Of a stretch of 39,462 nt of DNA, positions 1-22,585 are shown in pieces (position 1 is the first letter of the stretch; the number at the start of each line of letters is the position of its first letter). Source of the stretch: a virus (Duplodnaviria; Caudoviricetes); the IMG/VR virus record IMGVR_UViG_3300012200_000005, positions 1 to 39,462 of that record; one strand, 5' to 3'. Position numbers and translations under genes: made by a program. Under the pieces are notes generated by a model. The model saw only the letters and a program-made list of their open reading frames with translations, was not told where the DNA came from and ran no database searches.

Positions 1-123
1 GGCTGGTACTCGTTAGCCTGCTCGACCGCGCGAGCCGCGGGCTGGATGACCTGCTGCGCCGCTCCCAACGCGCCCTGGGCCGCACTGCCGAGATCCGATG
101 CCACCTGGCCCACCGCACCGCCA
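1..123. repeat. 123-bp terminal direct repeat, copy 1 (circular assembly overlap)
   Basis: Bases 1-123 are identical to 39340-39462, and a minus-strand ORF reads in frame across the join. Confidence 0.95.
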
Positions 124-2324: not shown

Positions 2325-2431
2325 CAGCACCACCTGCGCCAGAGGTGGCGCGTGAAGTGTGGACAGCCGGCCCAGCCCAGGCCGTTCCACAACAGCCAAC
2401 GCCGCCAGCTATACCGCCGCCCGGTACGCAT
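2324..2431 (-). CDS. 35-aa Arg/Trp-rich peptide (MRTGRRYSWRRWLLWNGLGWAGCPHFTRHLWRRWC)
   Basis: Fills the gap exactly, with TGATG overlaps at both ends. Confidence 0.45.
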   Translation of the reverse strand: MRTGRRYSWRRWLLWNGLGWAGCPHFTRHLWRRWC

Positions 2432-2604
2432 CAACCCAGCTTCTTGAGGGTTTGCGCGAGTCGAGCTCGACGTCCGGTTACGCCTGGCTTGCTAGCGGCA
2501 GCCGCGAGCTTCTTGGCTGGAATCGGCTTGCCTGGCGTGGCGCCCAGTGTCTTACGCAGAGCGCCTGGCTTGCTGATGGCTTTACTTATCCACTTCTCAG
2601 CCAT
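2431..2604 (-). CDS. small basic phage protein (MAEKWISKAISKPGAL...RARLAQTL type)
   Basis: GGAGG RBS before ATG 2604. The KWI..AI.KPGAL...G.RARLA.TL pattern recurs in phage head modules. Confidence 0.7.
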   Translation of the reverse strand: MAEKWISKAISKPGALRKTLGATPGKPIPAKKLAAAASKPGVTGRRARLAQTLKKLG

Positions 2605-2606
2605 GT

Positions 2607-4607
2607 CTACCCTCCTGGTGGCGGACCGCCGCCTGGTGCCGCTTGCGCTCCTGCCATGACCTGACCGTAGGCTGGCGGACCCACACCTGCCCCGTTCGGC
2701 GCCGCGGCCAACGCACCCAGATCGGGCACGCCACCCATGCCTGGACCGCCGCCTTCGAAGACGCCGGGCTGAGGTTGCTGCCCAGGTGGGCCACCGGGAG
2801 GGAGCCCCGCCTGGGCCGGTCCGCCGAGCTGGCCGCCGAGCGCCATCTGTTCCGCCTCCTGCGCCTTCTGCAGCATGTCGCCGCGGCCGGCTTCCATGAA
2901 CACTTCCGCGTCGAGCCATTTCTGATACGCAGGGCTGGCCCTGATCCTGTCTCGAGCGATGCTGCGTCGAATCTCATCAGGGTTGTCGCCCAGGTAGGTG
3001 ACAGCCTCGTCCTTGCCGAATGTGCCGGCGGCCAGGCGCTCGTGGGCGTAACGGGCCTGGATCATCTCGTCGGTCGGCAGCTGGCTCTGGACCTCCCACT
3101 TGATGCGCATCGGACGCTCGAGGTCTTTGGGACCGAAACCGATGAACTCGGCCGCGGCCTTTCCCGAGCCGACGTCGACGCCGCCGCTGAACACGTACAC
3201 CTTCTCGCCGGCTCGCTCGCGAATCAGCGTCCACAGTTTTTCTGTCTGACCCTTGAGCAGGCTCTCGAGGCCGTGTCGCACGGGCCCCACGCGGGTTCGC
3301 GAGTAGGACAAGACCTGGCTGATCGCGAAGCCGGCGCCTTCCATCCCACTCAGCGTGGTAACCCGGGGTGACTCCAGGTCGCGGATGGCGCCGTCGATCA
3401 GGCTCATGTGTTTTTCCAACGTGGCCGCGTCGGGGTACTGGATTCTTTGGAGCTGGCGACCGGGTGGCAGATTCAGGATCTCGCCCGGATGCACGGTCGG
3501 GTCGGTCTCTTTAGGCTTGCCCTCATCGCCGATGATCATCGCCGCGGGCGTTTCGCCGTACGTCACCAGCGGCGAAAGCAGGTCTCGAGCGACATATTGG
3601 GCGTGCATGGCGCGCAGGTACTGGCGGTACTGGACCAGCCACAGCTTGGTGCGGCCGATGCCCCAGCCGACCTTTCGATTGCGCCACCAGTTCATGGTCA
3701 GCCCTGGCGCGTAGTCGTAGGGAACGCCGAACGGATACTTGTGGCGGAATTGCTTGACGATGTAGCCCGTGGCGTCGCCCTTGTAGTTCTGGCCGCAGAT
3801 GGCGTAGCTCACCCAGGTGTCGTCCCAGTGCTCGAGGAAAGTCACGTCGCTGAGCGAGTTGCGGCTGGCCTCGATCAGGTTCTGCGCCTGGCCGAGCTCC
3901 TCGGGCACGATGTTGCCCTGCGAGTCGTAGCCGAGCCGATAGCGCCTGAAAGCGGAGCGCATCGGCATCTCCGAGGCTTCGAGGACCTCGCACAGATAGC
4001 CGTTGCTCCATTGGGGATACACCTTGCGCGGATCGACGTAGGCCCACACGAACGGCGGGCCGGCGCGCTTCTTGGCCTCTTCGGTCAGCTTGTCGTAGTT
4101 CGAGTAGTCCTGGGTCGACCCGCCATTCTTGCTCGGGTCAGGGATGCCGTAGCGTTCCGACCACAGGTCGCTCTGCCACAGAATTTTGGCCCACCCGCCC
4201 CCGTCATTGAGCGTGGCGTCAGTGACCTGCGTCATGGTGTCCGAGCCAGGCTCGCGCGTGCCGCACTCCCACAGCGTCTCTTCGGTGAAGTGCTCGAGCT
4301 TGCTGGCCACGGTCTGCGCCGTGTCACCCTCGCCGCCGACGATGCTTAGTTTCGGTCGCTCGAGCGTCAGGATGGCCGTCTGCTGGAACGCCTCTTCGGT
4401 GATGTCCGGGTCGCGCGGGTCGACATGGACGAGCACGTAGTCTTTGTCCGCCTCCGACAGAGCCGGCCGGCGCATCTCGCGCTGCTCGCGCACCAGGTCG
4501 ATGTCGTTGTCCTGCTGCAGGTACAGGTCGCCCAACTCTGATTGGAGCGAAGTCAGGTACTCGCTCGACGGCGCGCGCAGCTCCTTCTTGCCGCGGTCAA
4601 CAGCCAT
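2607..4607 (-). CDS. portal (head-tail connector) protein
   Basis: 666 aa from ATG 4607 (MAVDRGKKELRAP). It lies downstream of terL, has portal-like size, a WAYVDPRKVYP segment and a Gly/Pro/Gln-rich tail. Confidence 0.75.
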   Translation of the reverse strand: MAVDRGKKELRAPSSEYLTSLQSELGDLYLQQDNDIDLVREQREMRRPALSEADKDYVLVHVDPRDPDITEEAFQQTAILTLERPKLSIVGGEGDTAQTVASKLEHFTEETLWECGTREPGSDTMTQVTDATLNDGGGWAKILWQSDLWSERYGIPDPSKNGGSTQDYSNYDKLTEEAKKRAGPPFVWAYVDPRKVYPQWSNGYLCEVLEASEMPMRSAFRRYRLGYDSQGNIVPEELGQAQNLIEASRNSLSDVTFLEHWDDTWVSYAICGQNYKGDATGYIVKQFRHKYPFGVPYDYAPGLTMNWWRNRKVGWGIGRTKLWLVQYRQYLRAMHAQYVARDLLSPLVTYGETPAAMIIGDEGKPKETDPTVHPGEILNLPPGRQLQRIQYPDAATLEKHMSLIDGAIRDLESPRVTTLSGMEGAGFAISQVLSYSRTRVGPVRHGLESLLKGQTEKLWTLIRERAGEKVYVFSGGVDVGSGKAAAEFIGFGPKDLERPMRIKWEVQSQLPTDEMIQARYAHERLAAGTFGKDEAVTYLGDNPDEIRRSIARDRIRASPAYQKWLDAEVFMEAGRGDMLQKAQEAEQMALGGQLGGPAQAGLPPGGPPGQQPQPGVFEGGGPGMGGVPDLGALAAAPNGAGVGPPAYGQVMAGAQAAPGGGPPPGG

Positions 4608-4691
4608 CGGGGAGTCCAGTACAATTGAGAGCAACTTGCCCCCGCACCGCTTGCGACGGCCGGGGGCTCGGCATCGAAAGGATGAGTTCCG

Positions 4692-5402
4692 ATGCGTTTC
4701 CACCGTACGCCTTTTCCCCCGTCAGCAATCCCGTGTCTCTGTCCGACGTGTGGCGTCGACTTTGCGATCTCGCCATCAGACCTGGCCGACCAGAACTTCT
4801 GCTCGCGGCCGTGTTACTGGCGATGGCACAGCGTCGACCGACCGTGCCCGTGGTGCGCCACGGTGGTGCACTCGACGATGAGCCGGGCGCAACGTGGACA
4901 CGGCCACTTTTGCGACGTTAGCTGCTACCAGAATTGGCGAGCGAAACGCGCACACGAACGGTTGGCGGAGCGCTTCTGGGCGCACGTCATGTGCATCATC
5001 GACACGCATTGCTGGGAATGGCAACGGTCGCGCCTCCCCAATGGCTACGGCCAGCTCAGCGTTGTCGGTGCCGGCCGCCCACTGCGCGCTCCCCGCGTCG
5101 CCTGGGAATTCGAACACGGCCCCATCGCTAAGGGGTTGTTCGTCTGCCATCGTTGCGACAACCCGCCGTGTGTCAACCCGTCGCACCTGTTCCTGGGCAG
5201 CGCAAGGGAAAACACCCGGGACATGCTTACCAAAGGACGTGTCTGGAAAGGAAACACGAAGCTCACACCCGAGCAAGTGCTGGATGCACGCGCACGCTAT
5301 CAATTCCGTGCCGTAACCACGGTCATGCTGGCCGCCGAGTACGGGAGCAGCAAGGAGGCAGTGCGACGAGCCATCAAAGGCGAACGCTACCGCGGCATCT
5401 GA
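4692..5402 (+). CDS. HNH homing endonuclease with N-terminal Cys-rich zinc-finger repeats and a C-terminal HTH
   Basis: CWEWQ...GYG...VCHRCDNPPCVNPSHLFLGS..EN..DM HNH motif; two CxxC...FCs..CY units; KLTPEQV...LAAEYG HTH. It is antisense to the late operon. Confidence 0.9.
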   Translation: MRFHRTPFPPSAIPCLCPTCGVDFAISPSDLADQNFCSRPCYWRWHSVDRPCPWCATVVHSTMSRAQRGHGHFCDVSCYQNWRAKRAHERLAERFWAHVMCIIDTHCWEWQRSRLPNGYGQLSVVGAGRPLRAPRVAWEFEHGPIAKGLFVCHRCDNPPCVNPSHLFLGSARENTRDMLTKGRVWKGNTKLTPEQVLDARARYQFRAVTTVMLAAEYGSSKEAVRRAIKGERYRGI

Positions 5403-5450
5403 CTCGCTGGTCGGCGCCTTGAGCTCTTTCTTCGAGCGATCGACTGCCAC
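5402..5450 (-). pseudogene. displaced second copy of the portal N-terminus (MAVDRSKKELKAPTSE)
   Basis: Matches the current portal start MAVDRGKKELRAPSSE (4607-4560). Similarity ends at the HNH stop codon. Confidence 0.85.
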
Positions 5451-5467
5451 GCTAGCGCCAGTGTAAC

Positions 5468-5493
5468 GCCGTGAAACATCAATGTTTCACGGC
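5468..5493. promoter_or_regulatory. perfect 12-bp inverted repeat GCCGTGAAACAT-CA-ATGTTTCACGGC
   Basis: Lies beside a minus-strand TACACT (-10-like, 5465-5460) upstream of the displaced portal start. Confidence 0.45.
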
Positions 5494-5503
5494 AACGTCT
5501 GGG

Positions 5504-5537
5504 CTAGTCACCGCGGACGTGCAGGAACAGCGGCAGG
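5504..5537 (-). pseudogene. displaced second copy of the C-terminus of the small membrane gene (LPLFLHVRGD*)
   Basis: Matches LPLFLRVRGD* at 6281-6249 and shares the 17-bp stretch gcaggaacagcggcagg. Confidence 0.8.
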
Positions 5538-5569
5538 CGTCTCGATAGCCGGCACTACCGGTTGTGGGA

Positions 5570-5908
5570 TCAACAGCCGCGGCGATCGCGCTCTTGTTCG
5601 GTGACGATCTCGTGGCAGGACACGCACAGCGCCTGGAGGTCGGCTGGGTATTCGTCGCCGAGATGCACGTAGGACGAGTGGTGAACCTGCAACCGACGCT
5701 CCTTGCCGCACCTGGCGCACACGAACTTGGCGCGCTCGATGACCTCAGCCCGACGGCAGCGCCACTGCTGGCTGTTGAGATAGACGGCGTAGTAGTCTGC
5801 GCGCTGCTGCTGTGGCGAGCGGCGAAAATTGCGCGTGCGGTTGCCATCGAACGAGGCGTCGGGCCACAACGCCATCTGCGAAGCGGGGCTATTCCCAGGG
5901 GGCAACAT
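5570..5908 (-). CDS. small HNH endonuclease
   Basis: YLNSQQWR..R..VIERA..CARCG...LQVHH..Y...LQALCVSCH. GAGGAG RBS before GTG/ATG at 5911/5908. Confidence 0.85.
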   Translation of the reverse strand: MLPPGNSPASQMALWPDASFDGNRTRNFRRSPQQQRADYYAVYLNSQQWRCRRAEVIERAKFVCARCGKERRLQVHHSSYVHLGDEYPADLQALCVSCHEIVTEQERDRRGC

Positions 5909-12249: not shown

Positions 12250-12671
12250 CTCACCTCCGCCGGCAGTTGGTGATAGCTGCGGTCGAAGCGCGCCGGTATC
12301 GATGTGTCGGCGATCCACCACTCGCCAGCCGCCGCATGGCCGTCGTCCTCGAAGTCTGCCAACCGTAGAGGACCGAGAGTGACACGTTCGGGGGCGTCGA
12401 GCCATGCGCGACAGCGCGCCAGGACGACGGGATCGGCGATCACGTAGCGATACTCCATCCGATCGCAGCGTTGGTGGTTCATCGTCAACCCCGTGGCCTG
12501 CCGGTCGGGCTCGGGGTTACTGGTGAGCCAGACGAGCTTTGTGCCGAGCCACGGATGGAGATGCGGGACCAGCAGCGCGTTGAAGGTGCCAATGTCACGC
12601 TTCCCGTGTGCACAGGTGAAGTGGTAGAGCGCGACAACTGGTACGTCATCGCGTGGCTGGAGCTCAGCCAT
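12246..12671 (-). CDS. hypothetical protein, possible ADP-ribosyltransferase-like fold
   Basis: LYHFT...I....L.P...VWLT pattern. Confidence 0.45.
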   Translation of the reverse strand: MAELQPRDDVPVVALYHFTCAHGKRDIGTFNALLVPHLHPWLGTKLVWLTSNPEPDRQATGLTMNHQRCDRMEYRYVIADPVVLARCRAWLDAPERVTLGPLRLADFEDDGHAAAGEWWIADTSIPARFDRSYHQLPAEVR

Positions 12672-13125
12672 TGCTCAGGCCGTACTGAAAGGTGTGCTCG
12701 ATGGTTATTGCGTCACGCGGGTACCAGATGAACACAACGACTCCGCCCCTGCGCATCGACGGGATCTCGCGTTCCTGATACGGACTCAGATGTCCAGTGG
12801 CGCCCTTGAGCTCCGACCAGAAGTGCTGGCCCAACTCCTCGTGCCACCAGTACCAGTCGGGCACGCCCTTGGCTTCGGTGAAGCCGTCCAGCCGCTCGAG
12901 GTGGACGCTCTCCATCACGCCGTCGCTGTCGCGCGTGTGCACCCCGTTCCACCCGTAGTACTTCGCACAGGCCTTGACCGAGCGGGTGAGCTCGTCTTCG
13001 CCGGCGCCCTCGAGCAGCAGCAGACGGTGTCTGGTGAAGTACGGCCCGCGCGGGCCGACGCGATACGCCTGGGCGCGCACACGCGGATAAGTCAAGCCAC
13101 GCGTGGCGATCGTCACCGCCTTCAC
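12664..13125 (-). CDS. VRR-NUC-like PD-(D/E)xK nuclease
   Basis: KGVPD...FWSELKGATGHLSPYQ...VFIWYPRD. Likely start GTG 13125. Confidence 0.7.
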   Translation of the reverse strand: MKAVTIATRGLTYPRVRAQAYRVGPRGPYFTRHRLLLLEGAGEDELTRSVKACAKYYGWNGVHTRDSDGVMESVHLERLDGFTEAKGVPDWYWWHEELGQHFWSELKGATGHLSPYQEREIPSMRRGGVVVFIWYPRDAITIEHTFQYGLSNG

Positions 13126-13223
13126 CGCAGATACCTGAACCAGCGCGCCAGTCCCGCGGCCACGCACACGCTGGCCAGCAGCCAGCCGACCAGCGCCCAC
13201 ACCAGACCCGCCTCGAACGTCAC
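13122..13223 (-). CDS. 33-aa membrane peptide
   Basis: MTFEAGLVWALVGWLLASVCVAAGLARWFRYLR, with GTGA overlaps at both ends. Confidence 0.5.
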   Translation of the reverse strand: MTFEAGLVWALVGWLLASVCVAAGLARWFRYLR

Positions 13224-13486
13224 GGCGCCTCCGTATGCCAGTACGCGCTGGCGCGTTCGACCTCACGTTCGACGTCGACTTCGGCGTACAGGTTGGCGAG
13301 CTCCTCGAGGCGTTGCACGATCTGGCTCAGGTTCAGGCCCAGGTTGGCGTTGCGGCGGATGGCGTCCCAGCTGCCGGCCTTCCACGCCGCAGCCCAGATA
13401 GCGGACGGGTCCTCGGCCTCGCGCGGATGCAGCCGCTGCCAGGCAAAGAACCGCCCGCGCGCGTCGGTGTCTGCCACCACACTCAC
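13220..13486 (-). CDS. hypothetical protein, paralogue of 17610..17879
   Basis: FFAWQRLHPREAEDPSAIWAAAWKAG versus YFAWRHYHPSESENPSAVWGAAWRAG. Confidence 0.7.
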   Translation of the reverse strand: MSVVADTDARGRFFAWQRLHPREAEDPSAIWAAAWKAGSWDAIRRNANLGLNLSQIVQRLEELANLYAEVDVEREVERASAYWHTEAP

Positions 13487-13659
13487 GCCGCGCTGGGCTC
13501 CGCTTCGGGTGCGGGGCGGCCGTTCTCCATGGCGAGCTCTTCTTGAATCTTGACGTGCAACAGAAAGCCACCCTGCTCGCGGAGCGAACGGTGGTCCCTG
13601 ACTGCGAGCTTGCGCAGCGGGTCTTCGTCCTCGCGGCGCAATTCCACCAGCATGCGCAT
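13483..13659 (-). CDS. putative ribbon-helix-helix (Arc-like) regulator, first gene of the early operon
   Basis: MRMLVEL beta-strand followed by LRKLAVRDHRSLREQ helices. Confidence 0.6.
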   Translation of the reverse strand: MRMLVELRREDEDPLRKLAVRDHRSLREQGGFLLHVKIQEELAMENGRPAPEAEPSAA

Positions 13660-13696
13660 ATCGGCTAGCTTGCATCCCGCCGGGGGGTCCCGGCGC

Positions 13697-13735
13697 GACA
13701 CGTGGAGACACTTACAAAATGTGTCTCGTCGTGTC
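13697..13735. promoter_or_regulatory. operator array A: GACAC-N5-GACAC-N9-GTGTC-N5-GTGTC
   Basis: GACACgtggaGACACttacaaaatGTGTCtcgtcGTGTC. Its outer edge is 38 bp from ATG 13659, and minus-strand CAAGCT lies 7 nt before that ATG. Confidence 0.8.
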
Positions 13736-14212
13736 CGCTGCCGGCGGCTTTTCGGGGTCCCAGCGCGAGGGCGGCCAGTCGTCGGCGCGCAGGCCGTAGG
13801 TCTCCGTCATCGTGCGCACGATAGTCTTGGCCGAGTCGGTCCCGAGCTGGCAGACCGCCTTCTTCGACAGCTTGAGGTCGACATTCCTGGCCTCATCTTC
13901 GAGGTGTTGCATGCTCAGCACGAAGCCCCGCCAGGTACGGTGATCGGGGTTACTGGGCACGTGCCGATGCGGTTTTTGTTCTCGAGCACCCTTCGAAGTT
14001 GCCCGCAACGACCCGATCGTGCCGTCCTGCTTGGCGGTCCTGCGCGCATGCGGGCCGAACGCCTTCTGCGTCAACAACTGGTTGATCGCGGTGAGCGTGT
14101 GTACGGCGTCCACGGCATCAGTGAGCAAGCGGATGAGCAGATCGGTGCGTGGGTCCTGACCTGGAAACATCGGCAACTGCCGCTCCTGGGGATCATCGTC
14201 AACCACCGGCAT
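13712..14212 (-). CDS. putative SOS-induced transcriptional regulator (candidate activator)
   Basis: Directly downstream of the LexA-box promoter. C-terminal HTH-like segment LSKKAVCQLGTDSAKTIVRTM. Start is ATG 14212 or 14257. Confidence 0.55.
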   Translation of the reverse strand: MPVVDDDPQERQLPMFPGQDPRTDLLIRLLTDAVDAVHTLTAINQLLTQKAFGPHARRTAKQDGTIGSLRATSKGAREQKPHRHVPSNPDHRTWRGFVLSMQHLEDEARNVDLKLSKKAVCQLGTDSAKTIVRTMTETYGLRADDWPPSRWDPEKPPAADTTRHIL

Positions 14213-14224
14213 GCGCTCCGGCAG

Positions 14225-14253
14225 GACAACATGAGACACATTTGAAATCTGTC
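14225..14253. promoter_or_regulatory. degenerate operator array B
   Basis: GACAa-catga-GACAC-atttgaaat-cTGTC has the same spacing as arrays A and C. Confidence 0.6.
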
Positions 14254-14308
14254 CCATTGCCGGCGTCGGGTACGTCCGCCACGCGCTCACCGCTCCCACG
14301 CTCCACCC

Positions 14309-14330
14309 AAGATAACAGAACACGTGTTCT
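14309..14330 (-). promoter_or_regulatory. LexA (SOS) box overlapping an extended -10 promoter
   Basis: Perfect palindrome AGAACACGTGTTCT (14317-14330; GAAC-N4-GTTC) abuts minus-strand TGtTATCTT (14317-14309). Confidence 0.8.
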
Positions 14331-14444
14331 ATCGAATGGCTCGCGTTGCTCAGCGTGTGCTCGGTGGGGTGGACACGCGCCGGGCCAGCGCAGCTGCCGG
14401 TGCGCCAGTCCCCTCAGGTTCGGCTGATCGTTTAGGTAAAGACT

Positions 14445-14475
14445 ACGTTAGCGGCACGTAAACGAGACCTGTCAA
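14445..14475 (-). promoter_or_regulatory. possible second leftward promoter
   Basis: TTGACA (14475-14470) and TAACGT (14450-14445) with an atypical 19-bp spacer. TACGT-N7-ACGTA dyad at 14444-14460. Confidence 0.3.
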
Positions 14476-14549
14476 TGTATATGCCGGCGCGCAACGATCA
14501 AGCACACGGCGCTACTAGAAGATAACCTAGGCAACACGTGGGCAGCACT

Positions 14550-14771
14550 ATGCAGCCTCAAGTACGCACACGATCATCGCTGGACGTGCAGTTGCCGCGC
14601 CTGCGAGAACAACGCGAGCGGCGCGCACTCTCGCAGAAGGAGCTCTCAATACTGTCCGGGCTGTCGCGCACGAGCATCATCAAGCTCGAGGGTGGCCGCA
14701 ACGCCTGGCCGTCGACAGTGCGCAAGCTCGCCAAAGCTCTGCGCGTCAAACCCGAGGATTTGCAGGGTTAG
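14550..14771 (+). CDS. XRE-family HTH regulator (short, no peptidase domain)
   Basis: LREQRERRALSQKELSILSGLSRTSIIKLEGG...STVRKLAKAL. Start may be GTG 14538. Confidence 0.9.
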   Translation: MQPQVRTRSSLDVQLPRLREQRERRALSQKELSILSGLSRTSIIKLEGGRNAWPSTVRKLAKALRVKPEDLQG

Positions 14772-14773
14772 GA

Positions 14774-14812
14774 GACACCAGGGGACACTTTTTCAACGTG
14801 TCCGCATGTGTC
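14774..14812. promoter_or_regulatory. operator array C (mirror image of array A)
   Basis: GACACcagggGACACtttttcaacGTGTCcgcatGTGTC. Its outer edge is 38 bp from GTG 14850, and CAGACT lies 7 nt before that GTG. Confidence 0.8.
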
Positions 14813-14849
14813 GCGCCGGGCCACATTGTGACGGCGCAGACTGGATGGC

Positions 14850-15059
14850 GTGCCAGATGCCCGCCCCTATCACCTCGTGGACGCCGCCGAGTACGACACC
14901 AGCCCCGAGGCGGAGGCGAGCTACGTGGGCGACCTCGATGCGCGGCGCGCGCTATGGCACGGCGTATGGGATTGGGTGATCCGCGAGTGCGAGCGATTGG
15001 CGAGCGAGCAGGAGGCTACGCCGCCGCCCGCCCACCATCGAATCGCCAGGCGACCCTGA
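14850..15059 (+). CDS. small protein convergent on the integrase; candidate recombination directionality factor
   Basis: 69-aa ORF overlapping the 3' end of the recombinase and placed behind array C. The RDF role is positional inference only. Confidence 0.5.
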   Translation: MPDARPYHLVDAAEYDTSPEAEASYVGDLDARRALWHGVWDWVIRECERLASEQEATPPPAHHRIARRP

Positions 15060-16761
15060 TCGTCTTCCCTCGCGTCGATAGTGGCCTAAGCCACAAGTCG
15101 CTTTTGCCACTATCGACGCGGTCGATGGGCAGCGACGCCTCGATCTCGTAAGGCGGCAAACCCCACGTGCCGGCTTGAGCGCGGTTGCTCACCGTGATAC
15201 GGACGCCGAGCGCGAGCAGGGTGCGCTGGCGCTCCTCGAACGGCATATTGTCGAGTGCCTGCGCGAGCTGCGGACCGAGACGAAGTCTGAGCTGCTCGAC
15301 GTGGTCGCGCGCGCGTGCCACCGTTGCGCCGCGGCGCTCGACGTGTCCACGCTCAACTTCCAGAGCCGCACGCTGCTCGGCCAACTCGTTCATCTGCTTG
15401 GTGATCAGGACCACCACAGCGTCTTTCGCGGTGCCTAGCGCCAGCGTGTAATTGGCGAGCTGTGCGTCGATGTCGGCAATGCGCGCGGCGATCGCCGACA
15501 GATCCAGGCCGACGTGGTCTGCCTCGGCGAGGCGGCGCAGCTCGGCGTCGAGAAAACCTTCCTCGTCAAGTAGCCGCTTGACGTGATCCCACACCGCCGC
15601 GTCCATGTCCTGGCTGTTTGCCGATGTGCGCGTCGGACCACCCGGACGGTGAGTGTCCCCGGCATTACCGTGGCAAATATAGACGGAGTAGCCGGACTTA
15701 TAGGTCCGGGCGATGAGCGACCCGCCGCATTCAGCGCAACGGAGAAAGCCGCCGCGGAGCAGGAAACCCTCAGGGGTGTGGTTGTTGCGCGCCGCGAGCG
15801 CCTTGTTGGCCTGCCGCACTACCTCTGCGGCCTGCCACGTCGCTTCAGTTACTAGCGGCGGGTAGACGCCTTCCTTGAGGGGCACCCACTCTTCGCGCAG
15901 CCGAGGGCGGGTGATCTTCTTGCCGTTTCTCCTGGTGACCGACCAGCGATTCGCAAAACTGCGGCCAGCGTATGCGTCGTTGCTCAGGATGACCGAGAGC
16001 GTGCCGGTCTTCCAGCGCACCTTACCTGCCGGCGTAAGGATGCCGTCGCGAATCAGATCGGCGCAGATCGCGCGCAGCGGGCGACCGGACTCAACCTCGG
16101 CAAAGATCCGCTTGACCACGCGCGCGGTGGTCGGCTCGGGCTCACAGAAGCAGTTCTTGTCGCGGCGCGAATCGCTGAGAGGTGTGGCCCACCGATACCC
16201 GTAGGGTGGCCTGCCGGCGCCGTATGGCTTGCCGTTTTCGATCACGCGCTCGCGCTTGCCGCGATTGGTGCGCTCTTTGATGGCGTACAGCTCTTTCTTG
16301 GCGACGTAGCCGGCGACACTGCGCAAGAGCTGGCCCTCGGCAGTGTCGTCGAAGTGCTGCAACACGAAGCGCACCTGGAGTTCGGCACGCTTGGCCTCAT
16401 CGAGCACGAGGTCCATATAGAACGGCTCGCGCGCGAAGCGGCTGACATCGTAGAAGTAGACGATGTCGAAAAGCTTCGACTTGAAGTCGGCGCGCAGACG
16501 AGTCAACGACGGGCGCTCCCATAGCTCCTCGGCGGTGTGGACCTCCCAATAGACGTGCTCGGGACGAATACTGACACCGTCCTCAGTCGCGCGCCTAAGC
16601 TCGGCCTTGAGTTGCGAGACAAGCGACCAGCCCTCTTCCTGACCAGGGCTCGACACCCGCGGGTAGACGGCACCGAACGGACCATCTAGCGGGCGCTCTG
16701 CATAGAACGAAAGCCACACTTGCCAGGCGTCATGGGGCAAGCCCTCAGGACAGTCGTTCAT
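15016..16761 (-). CDS. large serine recombinase (integrase)
   Basis: Catalytic YPRVSS..Q...SL..Q, DVSRFAR, PPYGY recombinase domain, zinc ribbon LRCAECGG...YIC, coiled coil. Confidence 0.95.
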   Translation of the reverse strand: MNDCPEGLPHDAWQVWLSFYAERPLDGPFGAVYPRVSSPGQEEGWSLVSQLKAELRRATEDGVSIRPEHVYWEVHTAEELWERPSLTRLRADFKSKLFDIVYFYDVSRFAREPFYMDLVLDEAKRAELQVRFVLQHFDDTAEGQLLRSVAGYVAKKELYAIKERTNRGKRERVIENGKPYGAGRPPYGYRWATPLSDSRRDKNCFCEPEPTTARVVKRIFAEVESGRPLRAICADLIRDGILTPAGKVRWKTGTLSVILSNDAYAGRSFANRWSVTRRNGKKITRPRLREEWVPLKEGVYPPLVTEATWQAAEVVRQANKALAARNNHTPEGFLLRGGFLRCAECGGSLIARTYKSGYSVYICHGNAGDTHRPGGPTRTSANSQDMDAAVWDHVKRLLDEEGFLDAELRRLAEADHVGLDLSAIAARIADIDAQLANYTLALGTAKDAVVVLITKQMNELAEQRAALEVERGHVERRGATVARARDHVEQLRLRLGPQLAQALDNMPFEERQRTLLALGVRITVSNRAQAGTWGLPPYEIEASLPIDRVDSGKSDLWLRPLSTRGKTIRVAWRFDGGRAAA

Positions 16762-16890
16762 TGCTGGTCGTCTGACGCCGAGCGCGCCGGCTTGTCTTGG
16801 TTACACTGGTCATTGCAGATTCAGTCCTTTCCAAATGTCGAGTCTGCCAACGCCCCGGCTGCGTCCTGGCAGCGCGGGGCACTTTTGTGG

Positions 16891-17112
16891 TCAGGGTACT
16901 GGCGTGGTCAAGTCGGTGACCGCGGCGCCGAGCGCGCGGGCCAGCTTGCGGATGGTGCTGACGCGGGGTTGGCGGGCGTCGGCTTCCAGGTAGACGATGG
17001 TTGACTCCTCGACGCGCGCCTTCCGGGCGAGGTCCTTCTGGCTGAGGGCCTGGCGCAGCCTGAGCAGGCGCAGTCGTTCGCCGAAGCCACCTTCCAGGGT
17101 TGATACGGGCAT
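16891..17112 (-). CDS. XRE-family HTH repressor (73 aa, probably leaderless)
   Basis: FGERLRLLRLRQALSQKDLARKARVEESTIVYLE...STIRKLARALG. TATCAT lies 6 nt before ATG 17112. Confidence 0.9.
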   Translation of the reverse strand: MPVSTLEGGFGERLRLLRLRQALSQKDLARKARVEESTIVYLEADARQPRVSTIRKLARALGAAVTDLTTPVP

Positions 17113-17160
17113 GCCAGAATGATACTTGCATTGAGTATCTAGTACCAGTATGCTCCTGGC
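17113..17160. promoter_or_regulatory. back-to-back divergent promoters with a shared operator
   Basis: Plus strand TTGCAT(17126)-17 bp-TATGCT(17149). Minus strand TATCAT (17124-17119). Dyad GATACT-N7-AGTATC at 17121-17139. Confidence 0.75.
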
Positions 17161-17253
17161 GTGGCTTCGCTCCGAGAGAGCGGACCCGCCCGCAGTGTCA
17201 GCTGCGAACGGGCCCAGGGAGCCAACACCTACTGGAGAGGTGAAGAACCCCCA

Positions 17254-17613
17254 ATGACCAGCGTATCGCTCAAACGCCTGACCAGTTTCGACTACGGCCA
17301 GGGCATCGGTTATCTCGAGGTGTGGGTCAACCCCAGCACGGTCGCCTACGTCCAGTCCCGTCGCCGCTACGAGTCCAAGACTGACCGCCACTCCCTAGAC
17401 GGCACGCTCATTTACTTCCAGGAAGAGGCCGGCGTGCTCGCGGTCAAGGAGTCGATCGGCCAGGTCGTGGCGGTGCTGAGTGCCGGCGACAAGGGCATCT
17501 GCCGCGACTGCTACCAGCTGCTCGCCGAAGCCTGGTGCACGCTCTGCGATGACTGCCGTCGCGGTCGTCACGCCGGCGTCGACGCTGACCCGGACGAAGC
17601 GACCGTCGCGTGA
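17254..17613 (+). CDS. hypothetical protein with C-terminal CxxC..CxxC zinc finger
   Basis: ORF 17161..17613; likely ATG 17254 after GGAGAGG. Contains CRDC and CTLCDDC. Confidence 0.65.
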   Translation: MTSVSLKRLTSFDYGQGIGYLEVWVNPSTVAYVQSRRRYESKTDRHSLDGTLIYFQEEAGVLAVKESIGQVVAVLSAGDKGICRDCYQLLAEAWCTLCDDCRRGRHAGVDADPDEATVA

Positions 17614-17879
17614 CGGTGAGCGCCGATCCGTCCGCCGCGTACTTCGCGTGGCGGCACTACCACCCGTCTGAATCCGAAAACCCGTCGGCCGTGTGGGGCG
17701 CCGCCTGGCGCGCCGGCGGCCGCGCGGCCATCGCCGCCTCCAGCGAGCTCGCCGAGCTGGTGCCCGTCCTGCGCGGCCTGCTCGAGACGCTCGAGGATGG
17801 CTACGTCGAGCAGCAGGTTGCTGCGAACGACCGTCGCCCGAAATGGGACGAGGATGACGACACGCGGGTGAGCTGGTGA
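17610..17879 (+). CDS. hypothetical protein, paralogue of 13220..13486
   Basis: Shared FAW..HP.E.E.PSA.W.AAW.AG block; GTGA coupling. Confidence 0.7.
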   Translation: MTVSADPSAAYFAWRHYHPSESENPSAVWGAAWRAGGRAAIAASSELAELVPVLRGLLETLEDGYVEQQVAANDRRPKWDEDDDTRVSW

Positions 17880-18256
17880 GCAGCCCGAACGGAGCTTCGG
17901 GCGATCACGCCTACCCGATGACCGTCGAAGGCGTCGTCGAGGCGGTCAACGCGAAGGGCATCCGCATCAACGGCGAGTGGTTCAACGTCTCGCAGTTCAA
18001 GCCGGTGGCGCTGCCCGAGCAGGGCACACTGGTGCGGCTCGAGGTCCAGCCCAAGGGCTTCATCAAGACGCTGCAGGTCATTCAAGCCACACCTGAGAGC
18101 GGAACTCCCGCAGCTTTCTCCACTGCCCGCGACGACCGCATCAGTCGCCTGGCGGTGCTCAAGGCCGCGGCCGCCTTCGGTGCCAGTCGTCCAGATGCGC
18201 GCTCAAACGACGTGCTGAAGATCGCTGACGCCTGGCTGGCGTGGGTCAACCAGTAG
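17876..18256 (+). CDS. putative OB-fold ssDNA-binding-like protein
   Basis: Beta-rich N-terminal half, a linker, then the C-terminal I.R.A.LKAA...VL.IA..W..WV helical motif seen in phage SSB-like proteins. Confidence 0.45.
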   Translation: MSSPNGASGDHAYPMTVEGVVEAVNAKGIRINGEWFNVSQFKPVALPEQGTLVRLEVQPKGFIKTLQVIQATPESGTPAAFSTARDDRISRLAVLKAAAAFGASRPDARSNDVLKIADAWLAWVNQ

Positions 18257-18259
18257 ATC

Positions 18260-18523
18260 ATGCCTGACTTTCTTCCCTACGCCATCCTGCTCGTGATCAT
18301 GTCGCCGTACGTGGTCATCATCATCAGCGCTACCCGTGACACGTGGGCCACGTCGCACTGGCTCACGGTACGCAACTGGATGATTGCCATCGTCGGCATT
18401 GGCGGAGGCCTGTTTGTGATCGACCACATGACCGCCAACGCCTTCCTGGGCTTATTGTTTACAGGTGGCGTGTTGGGACTGCTGTTCCTTGCGCACGCGC
18501 TCGGCCTGGGCGGACCGAAGTAA
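18260..18523 (+). CDS. small multi-pass membrane protein
   Basis: 87 aa with three hydrophobic spans. Confidence 0.65.
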   Translation: MPDFLPYAILLVIMSPYVVIIISATRDTWATSHWLTVRNWMIAIVGIGGGLFVIDHMTANAFLGLLFTGGVLGLLFLAHALGLGGPK

Positions 18524-18524
18524 G

Positions 18525-18725
18525 CTACAGACCACCGAGCAGTCGCGGGATCAGCACGACGAGCACGAACAGGGTGATCGCCACGCCCGCCAGGAGCAGG
18601 CCCGCAGTCGTAAAACGTGCCTCCCATCGATCAACCTGGCCGCCCACGCGTCGGCGCTCGTAGCCCACGCTGAAAGTGATGTCCAGTCTCAACCCCGAGC
18701 GACGGTCGCTGTTGTCGTCATCCAC
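18525..18725 (-). CDS. small membrane protein (MDDDNS...)
   Basis: 66 aa with a C-terminal TM span. Its start region (24 bp) is repeated at 19383-19406. Confidence 0.6.
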   Translation of the reverse strand: MDDDNSDRRSGLRLDITFSVGYERRRVGGQVDRWEARFTTAGLLLAGVAITLFVLVVLIPRLLGGL

Positions 18726-18729
18726 GTCA

Positions 18730-18757
18730 GGTCGCGCTAAGGGCAGTTATCTCTATC
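18730..18757 (+). other. dif-like site S1
   Basis: GGTCGCGCTAA-GGGCAG-TTATCTCTATC (11-6-11 layout). Confidence 0.45.
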
Positions 18758-19004
18758 AAGTGTTCCGCTCAGCACGATCAAGCGCCAGGCGCCAACTTTC
18801 TATGGCTGCCAGCAGTTGTGCATTCTCTACCCGTAGCCGCTCGTTCTGGTTGCTCAAGTCTCGCCAGTCGCTGAGTAGCTTGACGACATCGATCAGGGGC
18901 GGGCGGAAGGGCTCGATGGCCATCGCCTGCTGAATGCGCTCGACAAGAGCGAGGTACTCGTCTTCGGACATCGGGCCAACGTAGCTGACGGGGTTGTTAG
19001 TCAT
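18756..19004 (-). CDS. hypothetical coiled-coil protein lying exactly between S2 and S1
   Basis: MTNNPVSYVG... starts in one arm of S2 and stops at the edge of S1. Confidence 0.55.
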   Translation of the reverse strand: MTNNPVSYVGPMSEDEYLALVERIQQAMAIEPFRPPLIDVVKLLSDWRDLSNQNERLRVENAQLLAAIESWRLALDRAERNT

Positions 19005-19023
19005 AGCGGCACTTATGGACAAG
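18996..19023 (+). other. dif-like site S2
   Basis: GTTAGTCATAG-CGGCAC-TTATGGACAAG. Confidence 0.45.
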
Positions 19024-19231
19024 CTTTGAGAGACTCGCCTCGTAATTCATGGGCGTGATGGAAAGCTTGCCGCCAAGCGTCCCGCTCTTCTGCGAGCATC
19101 GCATTTGCCCCCCGCAGCCGCTCGATCTCAGCGCGGCACTGGCAATGGCATGCCGGGCCATCGCACATATGCCCGTGGCAGTCTCCACGCTGACAGTCGG
19201 CGCACTCGTCTTTGGTAGCTATAACCGTCAT
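19013..19231 (-). CDS. small Cys-rich protein with CRAEIERLR motif
   Basis: MTVIATKDECADC...; TGATG-coupled to the LuxR remnant. Its stop codon lies inside S2. Confidence 0.6.
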   Translation of the reverse strand: MTVIATKDECADCQRGDCHGHMCDGPACHCQCRAEIERLRGANAMLAEERDAWRQAFHHAHELRGESLKACP

Positions 19232-19383
19232 CAGAAGCACCCCGCGCTGACATCGTCGCCCGGCGGCAGGTAGTGCTGCACTGGCGTCCAGCCCGTGGCA
19301 AACAGCAGGATCACCTGGCCTCGCGCGCTGACGTCGGCCTTGCGGTTGATGGAGTTCAAGTGGCTCTCCACGGTCTTCAGGCT
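19231..19383 (-). pseudogene. diverged C-terminal fragment of the LuxR-type HTH gene
   Basis: SLKTVESHLNSINRKADVSARGQVILLFATGWTPVQHYLPPGDDVSAGCF* aligns with the translation of 19941-19786. Confidence 0.85.
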
Positions 19384-19406
19384 CGCTGTTGTCGTCATCC
19401 ACGTCA
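19383..19406. repeat. 24-bp direct repeat of 18706-18729
   Basis: TCGCTGTTGTCGTCATCCACGTCA is identical at both sites. Confidence 0.9.
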
Positions 19407-19410
19407 ACTA

Positions 19411-19438
19411 GGCGGTGCTAACGGCACTTATGTTTGCC
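19411..19438 (+). other. dif-like site S3
   Basis: GGCGGTGCTAA-CGGCAC-TTATGTTTGCC. Confidence 0.5.
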
Positions 19439-19589
19439 AAAGGTAGCGCGGGGCGATGTGGACGCCGCTTAGCTTGCCGCAACCAAGGCACCGAAACCCC
19501 ACCATGACATCGTCAGCCACAGACCATGTCACCACGTCGCCGTGATTCGAGCCGAGTCGGTGGGCGAGCCAATGCTTGAGAGTCCTCAT
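19428..19589 (-). CDS. 53-aa hypothetical protein (MRTLKHWLAHRLG...CLGCG)
   Basis: TGATG coupling to the upstream gene; its stop codon lies inside S3. Confidence 0.55.
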   Translation of the reverse strand: MRTLKHWLAHRLGSNHGDVVTWSVADDVMVGFRCLGCGKLSGVHIAPRYLWQT

Positions 19590-19768
19590 CAAGACCGCTT
19601 GAGCGCACGCCTGGCGATGTCTGGGACGCCAGTGAATTCGGGTGCCACGTCCTCTATCTCCTGAAGGAACGCCCGCAGCCGCTCAATCTCAGCACGGCAC
19701 GCGAGATGCACGTCGCTGGTCACCTGTGCATTGAGAACGCCGGCTTCACGAACGGGTAGGTCTGTCAT
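19589..19768 (-). CDS. 59-aa hypothetical protein with CRAEIERLR motif
   Basis: Manual translation MTDLPVREAG...ACRAEIERLRAFLQEIE... Confidence 0.55.
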   Translation of the reverse strand: MTDLPVREAGVLNAQVTSDVHLACRAEIERLRAFLQEIEDVAPEFTGVPDIARRALKRS

Positions 19769-19785
19769 GACCGTAAGCCTAGCCT

Positions 19786-20073
19786 TCAGAAGCAGCCCGC
19801 GCTGACATCGTCGCCAGGCGCCACGTAGTGCTCGACTGGTGCCATCGCGCGCGTAGCGAACAGCACGATCACCTCGCCTCGTGCAGTCGTACCGGCCTTA
19901 CAGTTGACAGCGGTCAAGTGACTCTCCACGGTCTTCAGGCTAAGCGTCAGGTGCCGCGCGATCTCGCGGTTGCTCGCGCCACGCACCAGGACCGACAGCA
20001 CACGCTGCTCGGCGGGCGTGATGGCGTAGCGCTCAAGCAGCGCATGGTTGAGCGGGCGCGGATCGATCAACAC
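19786..20073 (-). CDS. LuxR/GerE-family HTH protein
   Basis: ITPAEQRVLSVLVRGASNREIARHLTLSLKTVESHL. Confidence 0.9.
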   Translation of the reverse strand: MLIDPRPLNHALLERYAITPAEQRVLSVLVRGASNREIARHLTLSLKTVESHLTAVNCKAGTTARGEVIVLFATRAMAPVEHYVAPGDDVSAGCF

Positions 20074-20226
20074 TTAGAGCAGACGCGCCAGGGCCACTCC
20101 CCCGATCAACCCGCCCGTCACCAGGTCCAGCCTGCCGATCGCGACAAACACGACACACAGAATCAGCACGAGCAGCGCCAGTACCCAACCAACCGTCGCC
20201 CAGGCGGGCGCGCCTTGAATCACCAC
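20074..20226 (-). CDS. putative holin (50 aa, two TM spans)
   Basis: MVIQGAPAWATVGWVLALLVLILCVVFVAIGRLDLVTGGLIGGVALARLL; directly follows the peptidase gene. Confidence 0.55.
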   Translation of the reverse strand: MVIQGAPAWATVGWVLALLVLILCVVFVAIGRLDLVTGGLIGGVALARLL

Positions 20227-20227
20227 G

Positions 20228-20668
20228 TCAGACTACCCATATGCAGGAGAACCCTCCGAGCCGTTCGTAGTCGGCCCGACTCAAGACATCCCATATGCCC
20301 TTGTAGCCAGGGGCCGAATTGGCGACCCACAGATTGCTGCCTTGCACGCCGCGTACCCCCACCCAGTGGTACCAGCTCGCACCACTCATTAGCCCCGCCG
20401 TCTGAGCGTAGGTCGCGTACGCCTCATCGAAGTTCAGCCAACTCTGCTCCGTCTTCAGCCCAGCACTCGAGCGCAGGACTCTCTGCAACTCCGAGCCGCT
20501 GCCGTCCATCAGGCCATAGCTCGGATTGATGTTGCCCGTGTACCCGATGTCGTACACCACGGCTTCACGATTGGCGTACACGTCCAGGCCGCGGCTCATG
20601 AACGCGGCGCGCTCCATCCACTCGGTGGCACATGCGCTACACGACCAGTCGTAGAGCTGGCCAGGCAT
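20228..20668 (-). CDS. C39-like cysteine peptidase, candidate endolysin
   Basis: Q..DWSCSAC...WYHWVGV...VANS gives a papain-fold Q/C/H/N set. Lies next to the holin-like gene. Confidence 0.6.
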   Translation of the reverse strand: MPGQLYDWSCSACATEWMERAAFMSRGLDVYANREAVVYDIGYTGNINPSYGLMDGSGSELQRVLRSSAGLKTEQSWLNFDEAYATYAQTAGLMSGASWYHWVGVRGVQGSNLWVANSAPGYKGIWDVLSRADYERLGGFSCIWVV

Positions 20669-20708
20669 GCTCGTCCATAGATCGAACTCTGCGACGGGTT
20701 CGGTTGCT

Positions 20709-20894
20709 TCACCGAAAGGGCAACCGGTTAACCCGGTTATCCTCCTCGTAGTACCAGTACTGGCCGTCGCGGCCGAGCGTCAGGCTCACTTTGTGGCCCT
20801 CGTCCATGATGACGTAGCGCTCGTCGCTGCGGGCCTCATCACCGTTGTCGGTGATCGCCTGCGCCACGCCAGGTCCAACGTTGTAATCGGTCAT
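20709..20894 (-). CDS. 61-aa protein, possibly fused to the peptidase by a +1 frameshift
   Basis: ATGA-coupled to the upstream gene; ends CCC TTT CGG TGA. Confidence 0.55.
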   Translation of the reverse strand: MTDYNVGPGVAQAITDNGDEARSDERYVIMDEGHKVSLTLGRDGQYWYYEEDNRVNRLPFR

Positions 20895-21094
20895 GGCGCG
20901 CTCGCCACAATATGGTCGCCGTCGACGCTCAGGTACGCCGGGTCGTAGCGCGTCAGGTTGTCGTACTCGGCCATGTCGTGGATGACCGCTACCTGATTGC
21001 CCTGCCCGACACCGCCCGACGGCTCCATGCCGATGATCAGACGGTCACTTTGGCGGAACACCACCTGGAACATTTGCTCGCTCTGCTCAGCCAA
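20891..21094 (-). CDS. hypothetical protein
   Basis: 67-aa ORF overlapping both neighbours. Confidence 0.5.
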   Translation of the reverse strand: MAEQSEQMFQVVFRQSDRLIIGMEPSGGVGQGNQVAVIHDMAEYDNLTRYDPAYLSVDGDHIVASAP

Positions 21095-21446
21095 GTTGCC
21101 ACCTTCCTATTCCGTCCTGGCGATTGACGTTTAACCTGACGTGCGATTCGGGCGCCGCCGTACTGTCGCCGGGATCGATAGCTCCGCACGCGCAGCCATT
21201 GCGCTCGGTCTTGTTGACGAACATCTGCTGGACCTCGGCAGGTGCAGCGCCGCCGCCCACCGGGTGCGTCGAGGTCGCCCCGCAGCCGTCAGGGCACACG
21301 AGCACAATGCCGAAATGGTTGCCGCTTCCGTCCGGGTTGGTCGCCCATTCGACCTCGGCAACGGGGATCGTACCGCTGTGACCACCCTCGTCGAAGACCA
21401 CGTCGACGCTGCCGTCCGCGTTCAGAAGAACTGGTCGTACGCTCAT
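21087..21446 (-). CDS. hypothetical protein (tail-associated)
   Basis: 119 aa, ATGA-coupled to the tail fibre gene. Confidence 0.55.
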   Translation of the reverse strand: MSVRPVLLNADGSVDVVFDEGGHSGTIPVAEVEWATNPDGSGNHFGIVLVCPDGCGATSTHPVGGGAAPAEVQQMFVNKTERNGCACGAIDPGDSTAAPESHVRLNVNRQDGIGRWQLG

Positions 21447-22585
21447 GGATTGCTTTCCAGGATGATCCGGTCGGTAGCACTGGCATTATTTGCAGCAACC
21501 TGGCCGGCCGCCGTTGACGCCACGTAGAACACGCCACCTTCAACACCTGGGGTTCCATACGCGCCAGGCTTCGCGCCAGTGTTCGTCAGCGTCCAGGAGC
21601 CCGCGATAGTGACCGTTGGCGTGACGGCCTTACGGACCCACCTGAACGAGCCGTAAATATTCTGTGGTCCCGCTGAGGCGTAGCCAGATATCTGAACGCT
21701 AAAGGGAGTCTCGCCCACAATCTCGTAGTACCGCAGACACCGCGCTACATCATCCGCCGGGTGCATCGGCACGTAGTCGGCTGGTTGCGAGCCGAGAACC
21801 AGCATCGCGTTGTCAAGATACACCGTTGCGGACGCAGACAACGCGACGCCTATGCGCACATCAGTCGCTGCGCCCAACGCGAGCGTCGCCGTGAGTGTCT
21901 CGTAACTGCCACCACCCGTGTGATAGGTGCCATAGGTAAGGGTGGTCATGCCGTCTGGGCTGATGAACGCCCGTACGGCGTTGGCGGTCGTTGTGCGGAC
22001 GCGAATAGACAGACTAACCGTTTTGTTCCGGAGTTGTTCGAGGTTGTCGCCCGCGACGAGTCCCTGCCAGATTCTCGAATTCCCTGCACCATTGCCAAGC
22101 GTGAACACGATCACAGCAGCAGCAAGGGAGTTATCAACATTCGTCGGTTCCCGACTAACAGACGCGGTATCAGTACCACTAGGAACTGACCGCCATTTAT
22201 CAGCGATGAGTGCACTACCCGTGAACGGCCCAACTCCACGCTGCCAGATCTCGAAGCCGCCGTTGGTCAGCAGATTGTCACGCGCGGTGTCCGAGCCGAG
22301 CTTGGCGTTGGTAACCGAGGCGTCAGCGATCTTCGCCGTGGTGACCGAGTTAGCGGCTAGGTCCGCGGCCGCAATCGTGCCGTCCGCAATCATGGCCGAC
22401 GTGATCGAGCCCGCGGGAATACCAGTAGCCGCGATCGCCAGTCCCTTGCCAACGCCGTCATGCGTATGCGTCGAGACCGCCGCGGCCAGCGCCTGCACGT
22501 CTTCCTTGACGAAGATATCCGCCGCCGCGGTCGCCCGCGGGAATGTCGGACTGTTGTAGTTAGGGTCGACTGCTATACGCGCCAT
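21443..22585 (-). CDS. tail fibre / receptor-binding protein
   Basis: HTHDG, repeated ADGSIT/VTTAKI stalk, NLLTNGGFEIWQRG carbohydrate-binding-like domain, CLRYYE. Confidence 0.75.
   Translation of the reverse strand: MARIAVDPNYNSPTFPRATAAADIFVKEDVQALAAAVSTHTHDGVGKGLAIAATGIPAGSITSAMIADGTIAAADLAANSVTTAKIADASVTNAKLGSDTARDNLLTNGGFEIWQRGVGPFTGSALIADKWRSVPSGTDTASVSREPTNVDNSLAAAVIVFTLGNGAGNSRIWQGLVAGDNLEQLRNKTVSLSIRVRTTTANAVRAFISPDGMTTLTYGTYHTGGGSYETLTATLALGAATDVRIGVALSASATVYLDNAMLVLGSQPADYVPMHPADDVARCLRYYEIVGETPFSVQISGYASAGPQNIYGSFRWVRKAVTPTVTIAGSWTLTNTGAKPGAYGTPGVEGGVFYVASTAAGQVAANNASATDRIILESNP

Follow-up and report, generated by a model that had tools for sequence, protein, structure and literature searches.

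Putative operator arrays of a predicted LexA-gated activator in the lysogeny module of a family of uncultured temperate phages

The complete genome of a temperate phage of the Caudoviricetes (IMG/VR record IMGVR_UViG_3300012200_000005; 39,462 nucleotides with direct terminal repeats; referred to as the window) carries three box arrays, A, B and C, in its lysogeny module, between the integrase gene and the minus-strand early operon. These arrays are predicted to be the operators of a putative helix-turn-helix (HTH) protein encoded between them, here called Act, the synthesis of which would be gated by LexA and which would switch on the lytic operon, an excision factor and probably its own gene. 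We assign this reading a probability of roughly 0.68. It is supported by a single promoter geometry found at all three sites, by a LexA-type box that abuts a TAnnnT hexamer upstream of Act, by the co-occurrence and co-variation of the arrays with Act, and by the lack of Peptidase_S24 and Peptidase_M78 domains in the four complete genomes on which the peptidase counts rest. The window also encodes a large serine integrase, RecT, a replication initiator, terminase and capsid. A preliminary description of the arrays had likewise proposed an activator; its view that the arrays belong to Act and that the small gene behind array C serves excision gained support, whereas the number of boxes, the start of the Act gene, the role of array B and the trigger had to be revised. 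The features are listed in Table 1.

Table 1. Features of the lysogeny module (positions in the window; promoter positions are counted from the start codon).
Feature	Position	Strand	Details
First early lytic operon gene	13483..13659	-	Ribbon-helix-helix (RHH; Arc/CopG-like); likely leaderless
Promoter A, -10-like hexamer CAAGCT	13667..13672	-	-13..-8 from ATG
Array A	13697..13735	-	Conserved three boxes 13697-13725; window-specific fourth box 13731-13735; palindrome centre -57; direct-repeat box -42..-38; overlaps Act stop codon
Candidate activator Act, 195 aa	13712..14299	-	N-terminal peptide, coiled-coil helix, C-terminal three-helix HTH with WPPxxW (predicted)
Putative internal promoter B, -10-like hexamer GACGAT	14195..14200	-	24 nt past outer box
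Array B	14225..14255	-	GGACA-N11-TGTCT-N5-TGTC; within Act reading frame
Promoter P1	14309..14329	-	LexA-type box GAACACGTGTTC (14318-14329), then TG-T-TATCTT extended -10-like element
P0, TTGACA-N19-TAACGT	14445..14475	-	Promoter-like element facing Act; candidate XRE1-repressed promoter
XRE1	14550..14771	+	HTH_3 alone, no peptidase domain; likely immunity repressor; start may be GTG 14538
Array C	14774..14812	+	Conserved three boxes 14784-14812; window-specific fourth box 14774-14778
Promoter C, -10-like hexamer CAGACT	14837..14842	+	
Small gene convergent on integrase	14850..15059	+	Predicted recombination directionality factor
Large serine integrase	15016..16761	-	Resolvase, Recombinase, Zn ribbon domains; PHROG 95, E = 4e-71

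Relatives were collected by protein and DNA scans, which gave 16 related phages and one distant locus (L027); two further contigs, L025 and L026, were excluded as near-identical to L024. Arrays A and C are the sole matches to the four-box pattern in the window, even when three mismatches are allowed, and none was found in 100 shuffles of the sequence. As an inverted repeat the pair (47 nt, 79%) is longer than any other in 12500-21500, and both have the flank CCCGGCGC. The preliminary description had placed each outer edge 38 bp from an outward-facing start codon, which agrees with the 37 nt counted between box and start at both arrays, and each hexamer does end 7 nt ahead of its start as it had stated. 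The four boxes are a different matter: the promoter-distal GACA is present at both window sites but at none of the 16 other sites scored (20 were examined, two of which, both from L015, could not be scored), and what is conserved is a three-box element, GGACA-N11-TGTCC-N5-TGTC. Anchored at the start codon, the A and C sites align almost without gaps as this element followed by N24-CAnnnT-N7-start. The last box lies 24 nt from CAnnnT at 30 of the 32 A and C sites of 17 phages, both L015 sites having 19, a shift of 5, and the start codon follows 6-7 nt after the hexamer at 31 of 32; the C site of L044 was measured by eye (24 nt to the hexamer, 9 nt to the start). Shine-Dalgarno-like words occur at none of the 32 sites and a scan with the sigma-70 consensus gave no promoter in 13400-15200.

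Because the start-anchored alignment is nearly gapless, the palindrome centre can be placed at about -57 and the direct-repeat box at -42..-38. A palindrome there, next to an absent -35 element, would be in an activator-like position. The A and C arrays of one phage are more similar to each other (0.71) than those of different phages are (0.53; permutation p = 5e-5, n = 9); either a common protein or gene conversion may lie behind this. A reading of the arrays as RNA hairpins was discarded: the spacer is fixed in length and varies in sequence, and the inner N5 segments of C are not complementary. In the A promoters of many relatives, and not in C, a TTGAC-like word is found at about -25..-20, 6 nt upstream of the hexamer, too near to it for a -35 element.

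Array B, which had been taken for a degenerate copy, is a full member. A position weight matrix trained on 12 A and C sites, all from other phages, scored C, B and A at 56.0, 41.3 and 37.8 bits, respectively, and the next site in the window at -6.1. In all 17 phages an xAnnnT hexamer lies 24 nt past the outer-box position of B. Its last T, a wobble base, is retained whether the codon is GAT (Asp), CAT (His) or TAT (Tyr); at other places in these genes 75 of 243 such codons (31%) end in T. The constancy of this T therefore points to a constraint at the DNA level and suggests that B is a third activator-dependent promoter. Array B lies within coding sequence, because in each of 17 phages the Act frame is open from a start just past the LexA-box promoter P1, with GTG 14299 as this start in the window. 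The gene thus likely begins at 14299 and not at ATG 14212, the start assumed in the preliminary description, which is CTG in L014 and TGG in L017. The open frame carries a conserved W-x-hydrophobic-x-x-PA peptide, and differences by codon position (396/298/458) are fewest at second positions. A shorter Act isoform from the conserved ATG at 14170 is plausible.

The window genome contains a single perfect GAAC-N4-GTTC box, at P1, which the preliminary description did not include. Of 18 phages, 17 have a perfect box ahead of Act, and L019 has one with a single mismatch; TAnnnT follows within 3 nt in 17 of 18, and just two further perfect copies were counted in 188,575 nt. GAAC-N4-GTTC is given as the LexA motif of Firmicutes and Actinobacteria in PMC3323433. 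Act is probably made when host LexA is released after DNA damage. Neither Peptidase_S24, the domain of cleavable repressors of the lambda CI type, nor Peptidase_M78, that of ImmR/ImmA-type antirepressors, was found in any of the four complete genomes, in searches whose controls were positive in 9 and 7 of 14, respectively. XRE1, an HTH_3 protein without a peptidase domain, is part of the module in 16 of 17 phages. It probably represses the promoter-like element P0, whose hexamer reads TAA[CG]GT or AAACGT in 14 of 16 phages, with TTGAC 19 nt upstream in six of 16. Between P0 and the LexA-type box, at 14380-14420 on the minus strand, there is a GC-rich hairpin that includes G-U pairs and has the loop GGCAG; it is seen in several relatives too, and its consensus fold is weakly supported.

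The preliminary description had named the absence of the arrays beside homologues as grounds for rejecting its proposal and had suggested searching such loci for co-conservation of array spacing and gene. The outcome favoured the proposal: the arrays adjoin the Act gene in all 17 near relatives including the window. A DNA-pattern scan returned 13 phage contigs. Seven were earlier finds that had gone into the pattern; the six newly found all carry Act. Four GTDB matches to the same pattern lack Act and have GC-rich spacers, and one of them, in Dehalococcoidia, is chance-like and was not taken as evidence of the host. The exact four-box pattern had no match in viral contigs, and its 13 matching metagenome loci were rejected as relatives, two being the window itself and 11 unrelated repeats without an Act homologue. 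At the distant locus L027 (31% identity) the LexA-type box, TATAAT and GGACA-N9-TGTCC-N5-TGTC are retained; 8.3 kb of this locus gave neither an XRE nor an integrase hit. L018 has arrays A and B with XRE1 missing.

The co-variation tests left out L018, which lacks XRE1, L047, which nearly duplicates L048, and L025 and L026, as well as the array of L015 and the C sites of L020 and L024, which were not parsed. The half-site sequence of C varies with the HTH of Act (Mantel r = 0.50, p = 0.0003, n = 12), compared with r = 0.01 for the adjoining XRE1 and r = 0.21 for the RHH protein. The variants are of two operator types, GACAA and GACAC; with these labels, which were set after the data had been inspected, the type changes once on the Act tree (none of 500 shuffles as low) and four times on the XRE1 tree (57 of 500).

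The Act family comprises 129 clusters at 50% identity and is unnamed: Act has no Pfam or PHROG match and no Pfam hit at E ≤ 1, and none of the Ogr/Delta or Mor/C models of Pfam or PHROG matched it. Sequence searches of the PDB gave nothing significant, no relative was found among 50,697 GenBank phages, and none of 20 candidates from a GTDB protein scan was confirmed. Its C-terminal domain is modelled as a helix bundle with a predicted local distance difference test (pLDDT) score of 90.7, and HTH domains make up almost all of its closest structural matches, namely TetR N-termini (Z = 4.5, 57 aligned, root-mean-square deviation 2.7), sigma region 3 and Rex. Distant members have sub-threshold HTH hits in Pfam, and two have N-terminal PAS domains, as seen with the output domains of regulators. 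The domain is tentatively read as a three-helix HTH of an unnamed family. An Atlas match to Act (score 0.79) is a lead only. The idea that QLPMF is a clamp motif was dropped, as it occurs in only 32 of 129 members, with xQFP in its place in 17. Many distant homologues (proteins P0072-P0134) have a hydrophobic C-terminal tail ending in DGxLD and are possibly membrane-associated. No description of Act or its operator was found in the literature, including the accessible part of PMC8565304; subscription papers and bioRxiv supplements were outside the scope of that search.

Array C drives, on this reading, a small gene that the preliminary description had taken for a candidate excision gene. It is convergent on a long open reading frame in 15 of the 15 phages examined. 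Eleven of these frames match an integrase profile, two (L016 and L035) are classed by Pfam as serine recombinases and that of L019 is cut by the contig end; L044 has a tyrosine integrase, faced by an HTH_17 protein of the excisionase type. The small protein has the same nearest neighbour as the integrase in 10 of 15 phages, and it varies with the integrase (Mantel r = 0.28, p = 0.006) compared with -0.06 for Act and 0.10 for XRE1. In L020, C has remained with the small gene, 1.9 kb away from XRE1. A complex of the small protein with the integrase was predicted with a score of 0.64, against 0.00 for the best of three controls; the mark used for such scores is attained by 116 of 157 solved complexes and by two of 215 mismatched pairs. 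The runs share at least 83% of their contacts, the partner has a pLDDT of at least 68 and the interface lies at DBD2 and the coiled-coil base of the integrase (residues 398, 491-519 and 544-547). Functional recombination directionality factors (RDFs) of serine integrases are predicted to bind the coiled-coil base in PMC12286644, and the placement here is the same as that described there, a small unconserved protein at the DBD2/coiled-coil junction and not at the tip. The product of 14850..15059 is therefore predicted to be an RDF, with independent support for the excision role from the integrase-linked swapping, the HTH_17 protein of L044 and the modelled complex. Compared with known RDFs, the small proteins appear to belong to new sequence families, which are exchanged along with the integrase while the promoter stays the same.

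A number of points weigh against the reading of A, B and C as operators of a LexA-gated Act, or against parts of it. The co-variation is suggestive and not proof, because it rests on one evolutionary event with modest branch support (68/83) and on labels chosen post hoc, and the phages are not independent. Site A alone follows the HTH of Act more weakly than site C (r = 0.28, p = 0.03, n = 13). Array A overlaps the 3' end of Act, so gene conversion between A and C could pass this linkage on to C, and in L047 the two have recombined. The fold matches of Act are weak, with a best Z of 4.5, and Foldseek searches with the full model and the domain gave nothing at E ≤ 0.001. Recognition of the box by the LexA of the host is an assumption. 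The fixed spacing at B may partly reflect the reading frame, as B is coding sequence; its left half is lost or shifted in three of 17 phages, and its hexamer lies 12-24 nt from the next in-frame ATG in the 11 phages measured, and not 7. As for the RDF, the passing complex score may show likeness only, because similar integrase-RDF complexes have already been solved.

If the reading holds, DNA damage would remove LexA from P1 and Act would be made. A dimer of Act would bind the palindrome at about -57 and a further subunit the repeat at -42..-38, beside the missing -35 element, and polymerase would be recruited. Act would then turn on promoter A, for the early lytic operon, and promoter C, for the predicted excision factor, both yielding leaderless transcripts. 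An internal transcript from B would give the shorter Act from ATG 14170 and act as a positive-feedback latch. XRE1 would guard P0 as a second upstream promoter that is used upon fresh infection. Put together, this would be a purely positive, self-latching lysis-lysogeny switch, in which the short isoform of a LexA-gated HTH activator holds induction after LexA has recovered and one promoter cassette fires the lytic operon together with an interchangeable serine RDF or tyrosine Xis; this fuller scheme is offered tentatively, at somewhat less than even odds.

Other proteins, or another use of Act, might account for the arrays. Act might act on them as a repressor or roadblock, in a Cro-like turn-down of early genes, with B merely auto-repressing P1. 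Array B does lie some 65-95 nt downstream of the LexA box, within the P1 transcript, and A and C are at the 3' ends of genes where read-through could be blocked. We consider this unlikely: the strictly fixed upstream position, the lack of a -35 element and a C at -12 suit activation, and an SOS-induced repression of the excision factor would be backwards. Alternatively, XRE1 might be a repressor bound at the arrays, and Act an antirepressor of the Tum/Ant kind under LexA control. Such antirepressors with non-cleavable repressors are established according to PMC10432266, and the peptidase-less HTH_3 protein XRE1 shares the module in 16 of 17 phages. The operator, however, does not follow XRE1 in either the Mantel test or the tree comparison, L018 and L027 keep arrays without XRE1, the sites are upstream of -38 and off the core promoter, and Act is itself modelled as an HTH protein, all of which make this explanation decidedly unlikely. 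A sigma-like or sigma-adapting factor that steers polymerase to CAnnnT promoters would fit the recurrence of sigma region-3 domains among the fold matches (1rp3 residues 89-139, Z = 4.3, 50 aligned, root-mean-square deviation 2.6), the hit of one distant Act member to Sigma70_r3 (E = 0.002, below the cut-off) and the T missing at -12 from all three hexamers. That role is rated as more improbable still, as the sigma-type matches tie with TetR-type HTHs, Act is without sigma region 2 and a palindromic dimer site at -57 fits a conventional activator.

The arrangement of A and C as inverted repeats next to a serine recombinase could also mark them as recombination sites of an invertible XRE1-Act segment, that is, a phase switch, and L047 (2450-3390) compared with L048 (2600-3590) does have this segment inverted, and the junction there seems to fall within the shared inner box. 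Inversion was found in only one of 17 phages, the palindrome centre is odd, variable and not the same in A as in C, the segment itself includes a third copy, B, and no strand-switch joint at A or C was found in the contigs of four runs (two of which may be the source of the window phage), where contigs drop rare variants. A phase switch is thus very improbable; the inversion leaves the geometry of the RHH promoter intact and is read as an occasional recombination between repeats. Binding of the arrays by a host regulator is highly unlikely as well. Host regulons could include such a protein, but only the four scattered, chance-like matches were found in GTDB species genomes and the site varies with the phage's own Act.

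Phage activators of weak promoters that bind dyad or repeat sites upstream of -35 include Ogr of P2 and delta of P4, Mor and C of Mu, and CII of lambda. These serve middle or late genes or the establishment of lysogeny and are not known to be gated by LexA. Act resembles them in the placement of its sites and differs in having no Pfam or PHROG match. In the Bacillus phage GIL01, host LexA represses gp6, which activates lytic genes after DNA damage, and the gp6 site is a palindrome near -35 with its centre at -43.5 (GaCACAn nTGTGaC), as described in PMC6182141. The likeness lies in an activator gene under a LexA box, here at the motif level only (17 of 18 phages). Whereas gp6 is a homologue of the LexA N-terminus, Act is not homologous to it (2.3% probability in an hhalign comparison of the Act alignment with gp6). 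The gp6 site at P3 has a 2 nt centre (GACACA-nn-TGTGAC), compared with the 11-nt A/T spacer and direct repeat of the Act site, and the N9-spaced array core has no match in GIL01 1-5600. In GIL01, a tectivirus that does not integrate, gp6 serves one late promoter; the Act sites, in a tailed phage that does, lie at the early operon, the predicted excision gene and the gene for Act. Tum of 186, AntC of N15 and the transcription factor-small open reading frame modules, as described in PMC10432266, would share with Act induction without a self-cleaving phage repressor and a small SOS- or transcription factor-controlled module upstream of lysis. Tum and AntC inactivate the repressor by protein contact in the same account, whereas for Act the site positions point to direct DNA binding. 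The arrays are a real conserved regulon, and we infer an SOS-gated positive control with a protein, site and targets unlike those of GIL01.

The textbook prophage switch is the removal of a repressor. The bearers of the Act/array system are a family of uncultured temperate phages which appears to enter lysis through an SOS-gated activator with positive feedback, with excision coupled to lytic entry. An unnamed predicted HTH family is defined together with its predicted operator, and the natural GACAA and GACAC variants of protein and operator make the specificity directly testable. The promoter cassette marks predicted excision genes, which gives about a dozen candidate integrase-RDF pairs. 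The RHH product of the early operon has Atlas neighbours including RHH_5, RHH_1 and Arc at 0.90-0.93, and one homologue matches the PHROG 'Arc-like repressor' (E = 0.009). Its nearest Atlas clusters have few members with a phylum, mostly Chloroflexota, which is a weak hint that the host is probably of this phylum. The GAAC-N4-GTTC motif is also used by LexA in Chloroflexota. Should the host belong there, the inducible activator-promoter set might become a genetic tool for these bacteria.

Some further features were noted. In L018 (1864-2345) the integrase is truncated right before the LexA box, and XRE1, C and the small gene are missing; P0008 is an in-frame integrase-Act fusion. Together these suggest recurrent deletions. 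A second module, at 16891-18256 of the window, has another XRE gene, XRE2 (minus strand), transcribed away from a small operon; it contains TTGCAT-N17-TATGCT and the palindrome GATACT-N7-AGTATC. Synteny of this module extends to several relatives, and the reading frame 17610-17879 is a paralogue of the early gene 13220-13486. At 17178-17253 (minus strand) lies a PtaRNA1-like antisense RNA (Rfam RF01811, 40.8 bits with a gathering threshold of 47, E = 7.5e-6), directly upstream of and antisense to the gene at 17254 beside XRE2, with which it possibly forms a type I toxin-antitoxin or regulatory pair. A LuxR-type HTH gene (GerE, E = 9e-11) is found at 19786-20073 (minus strand), with a duplicate copy at about 19231-19404, some 555 nt away.

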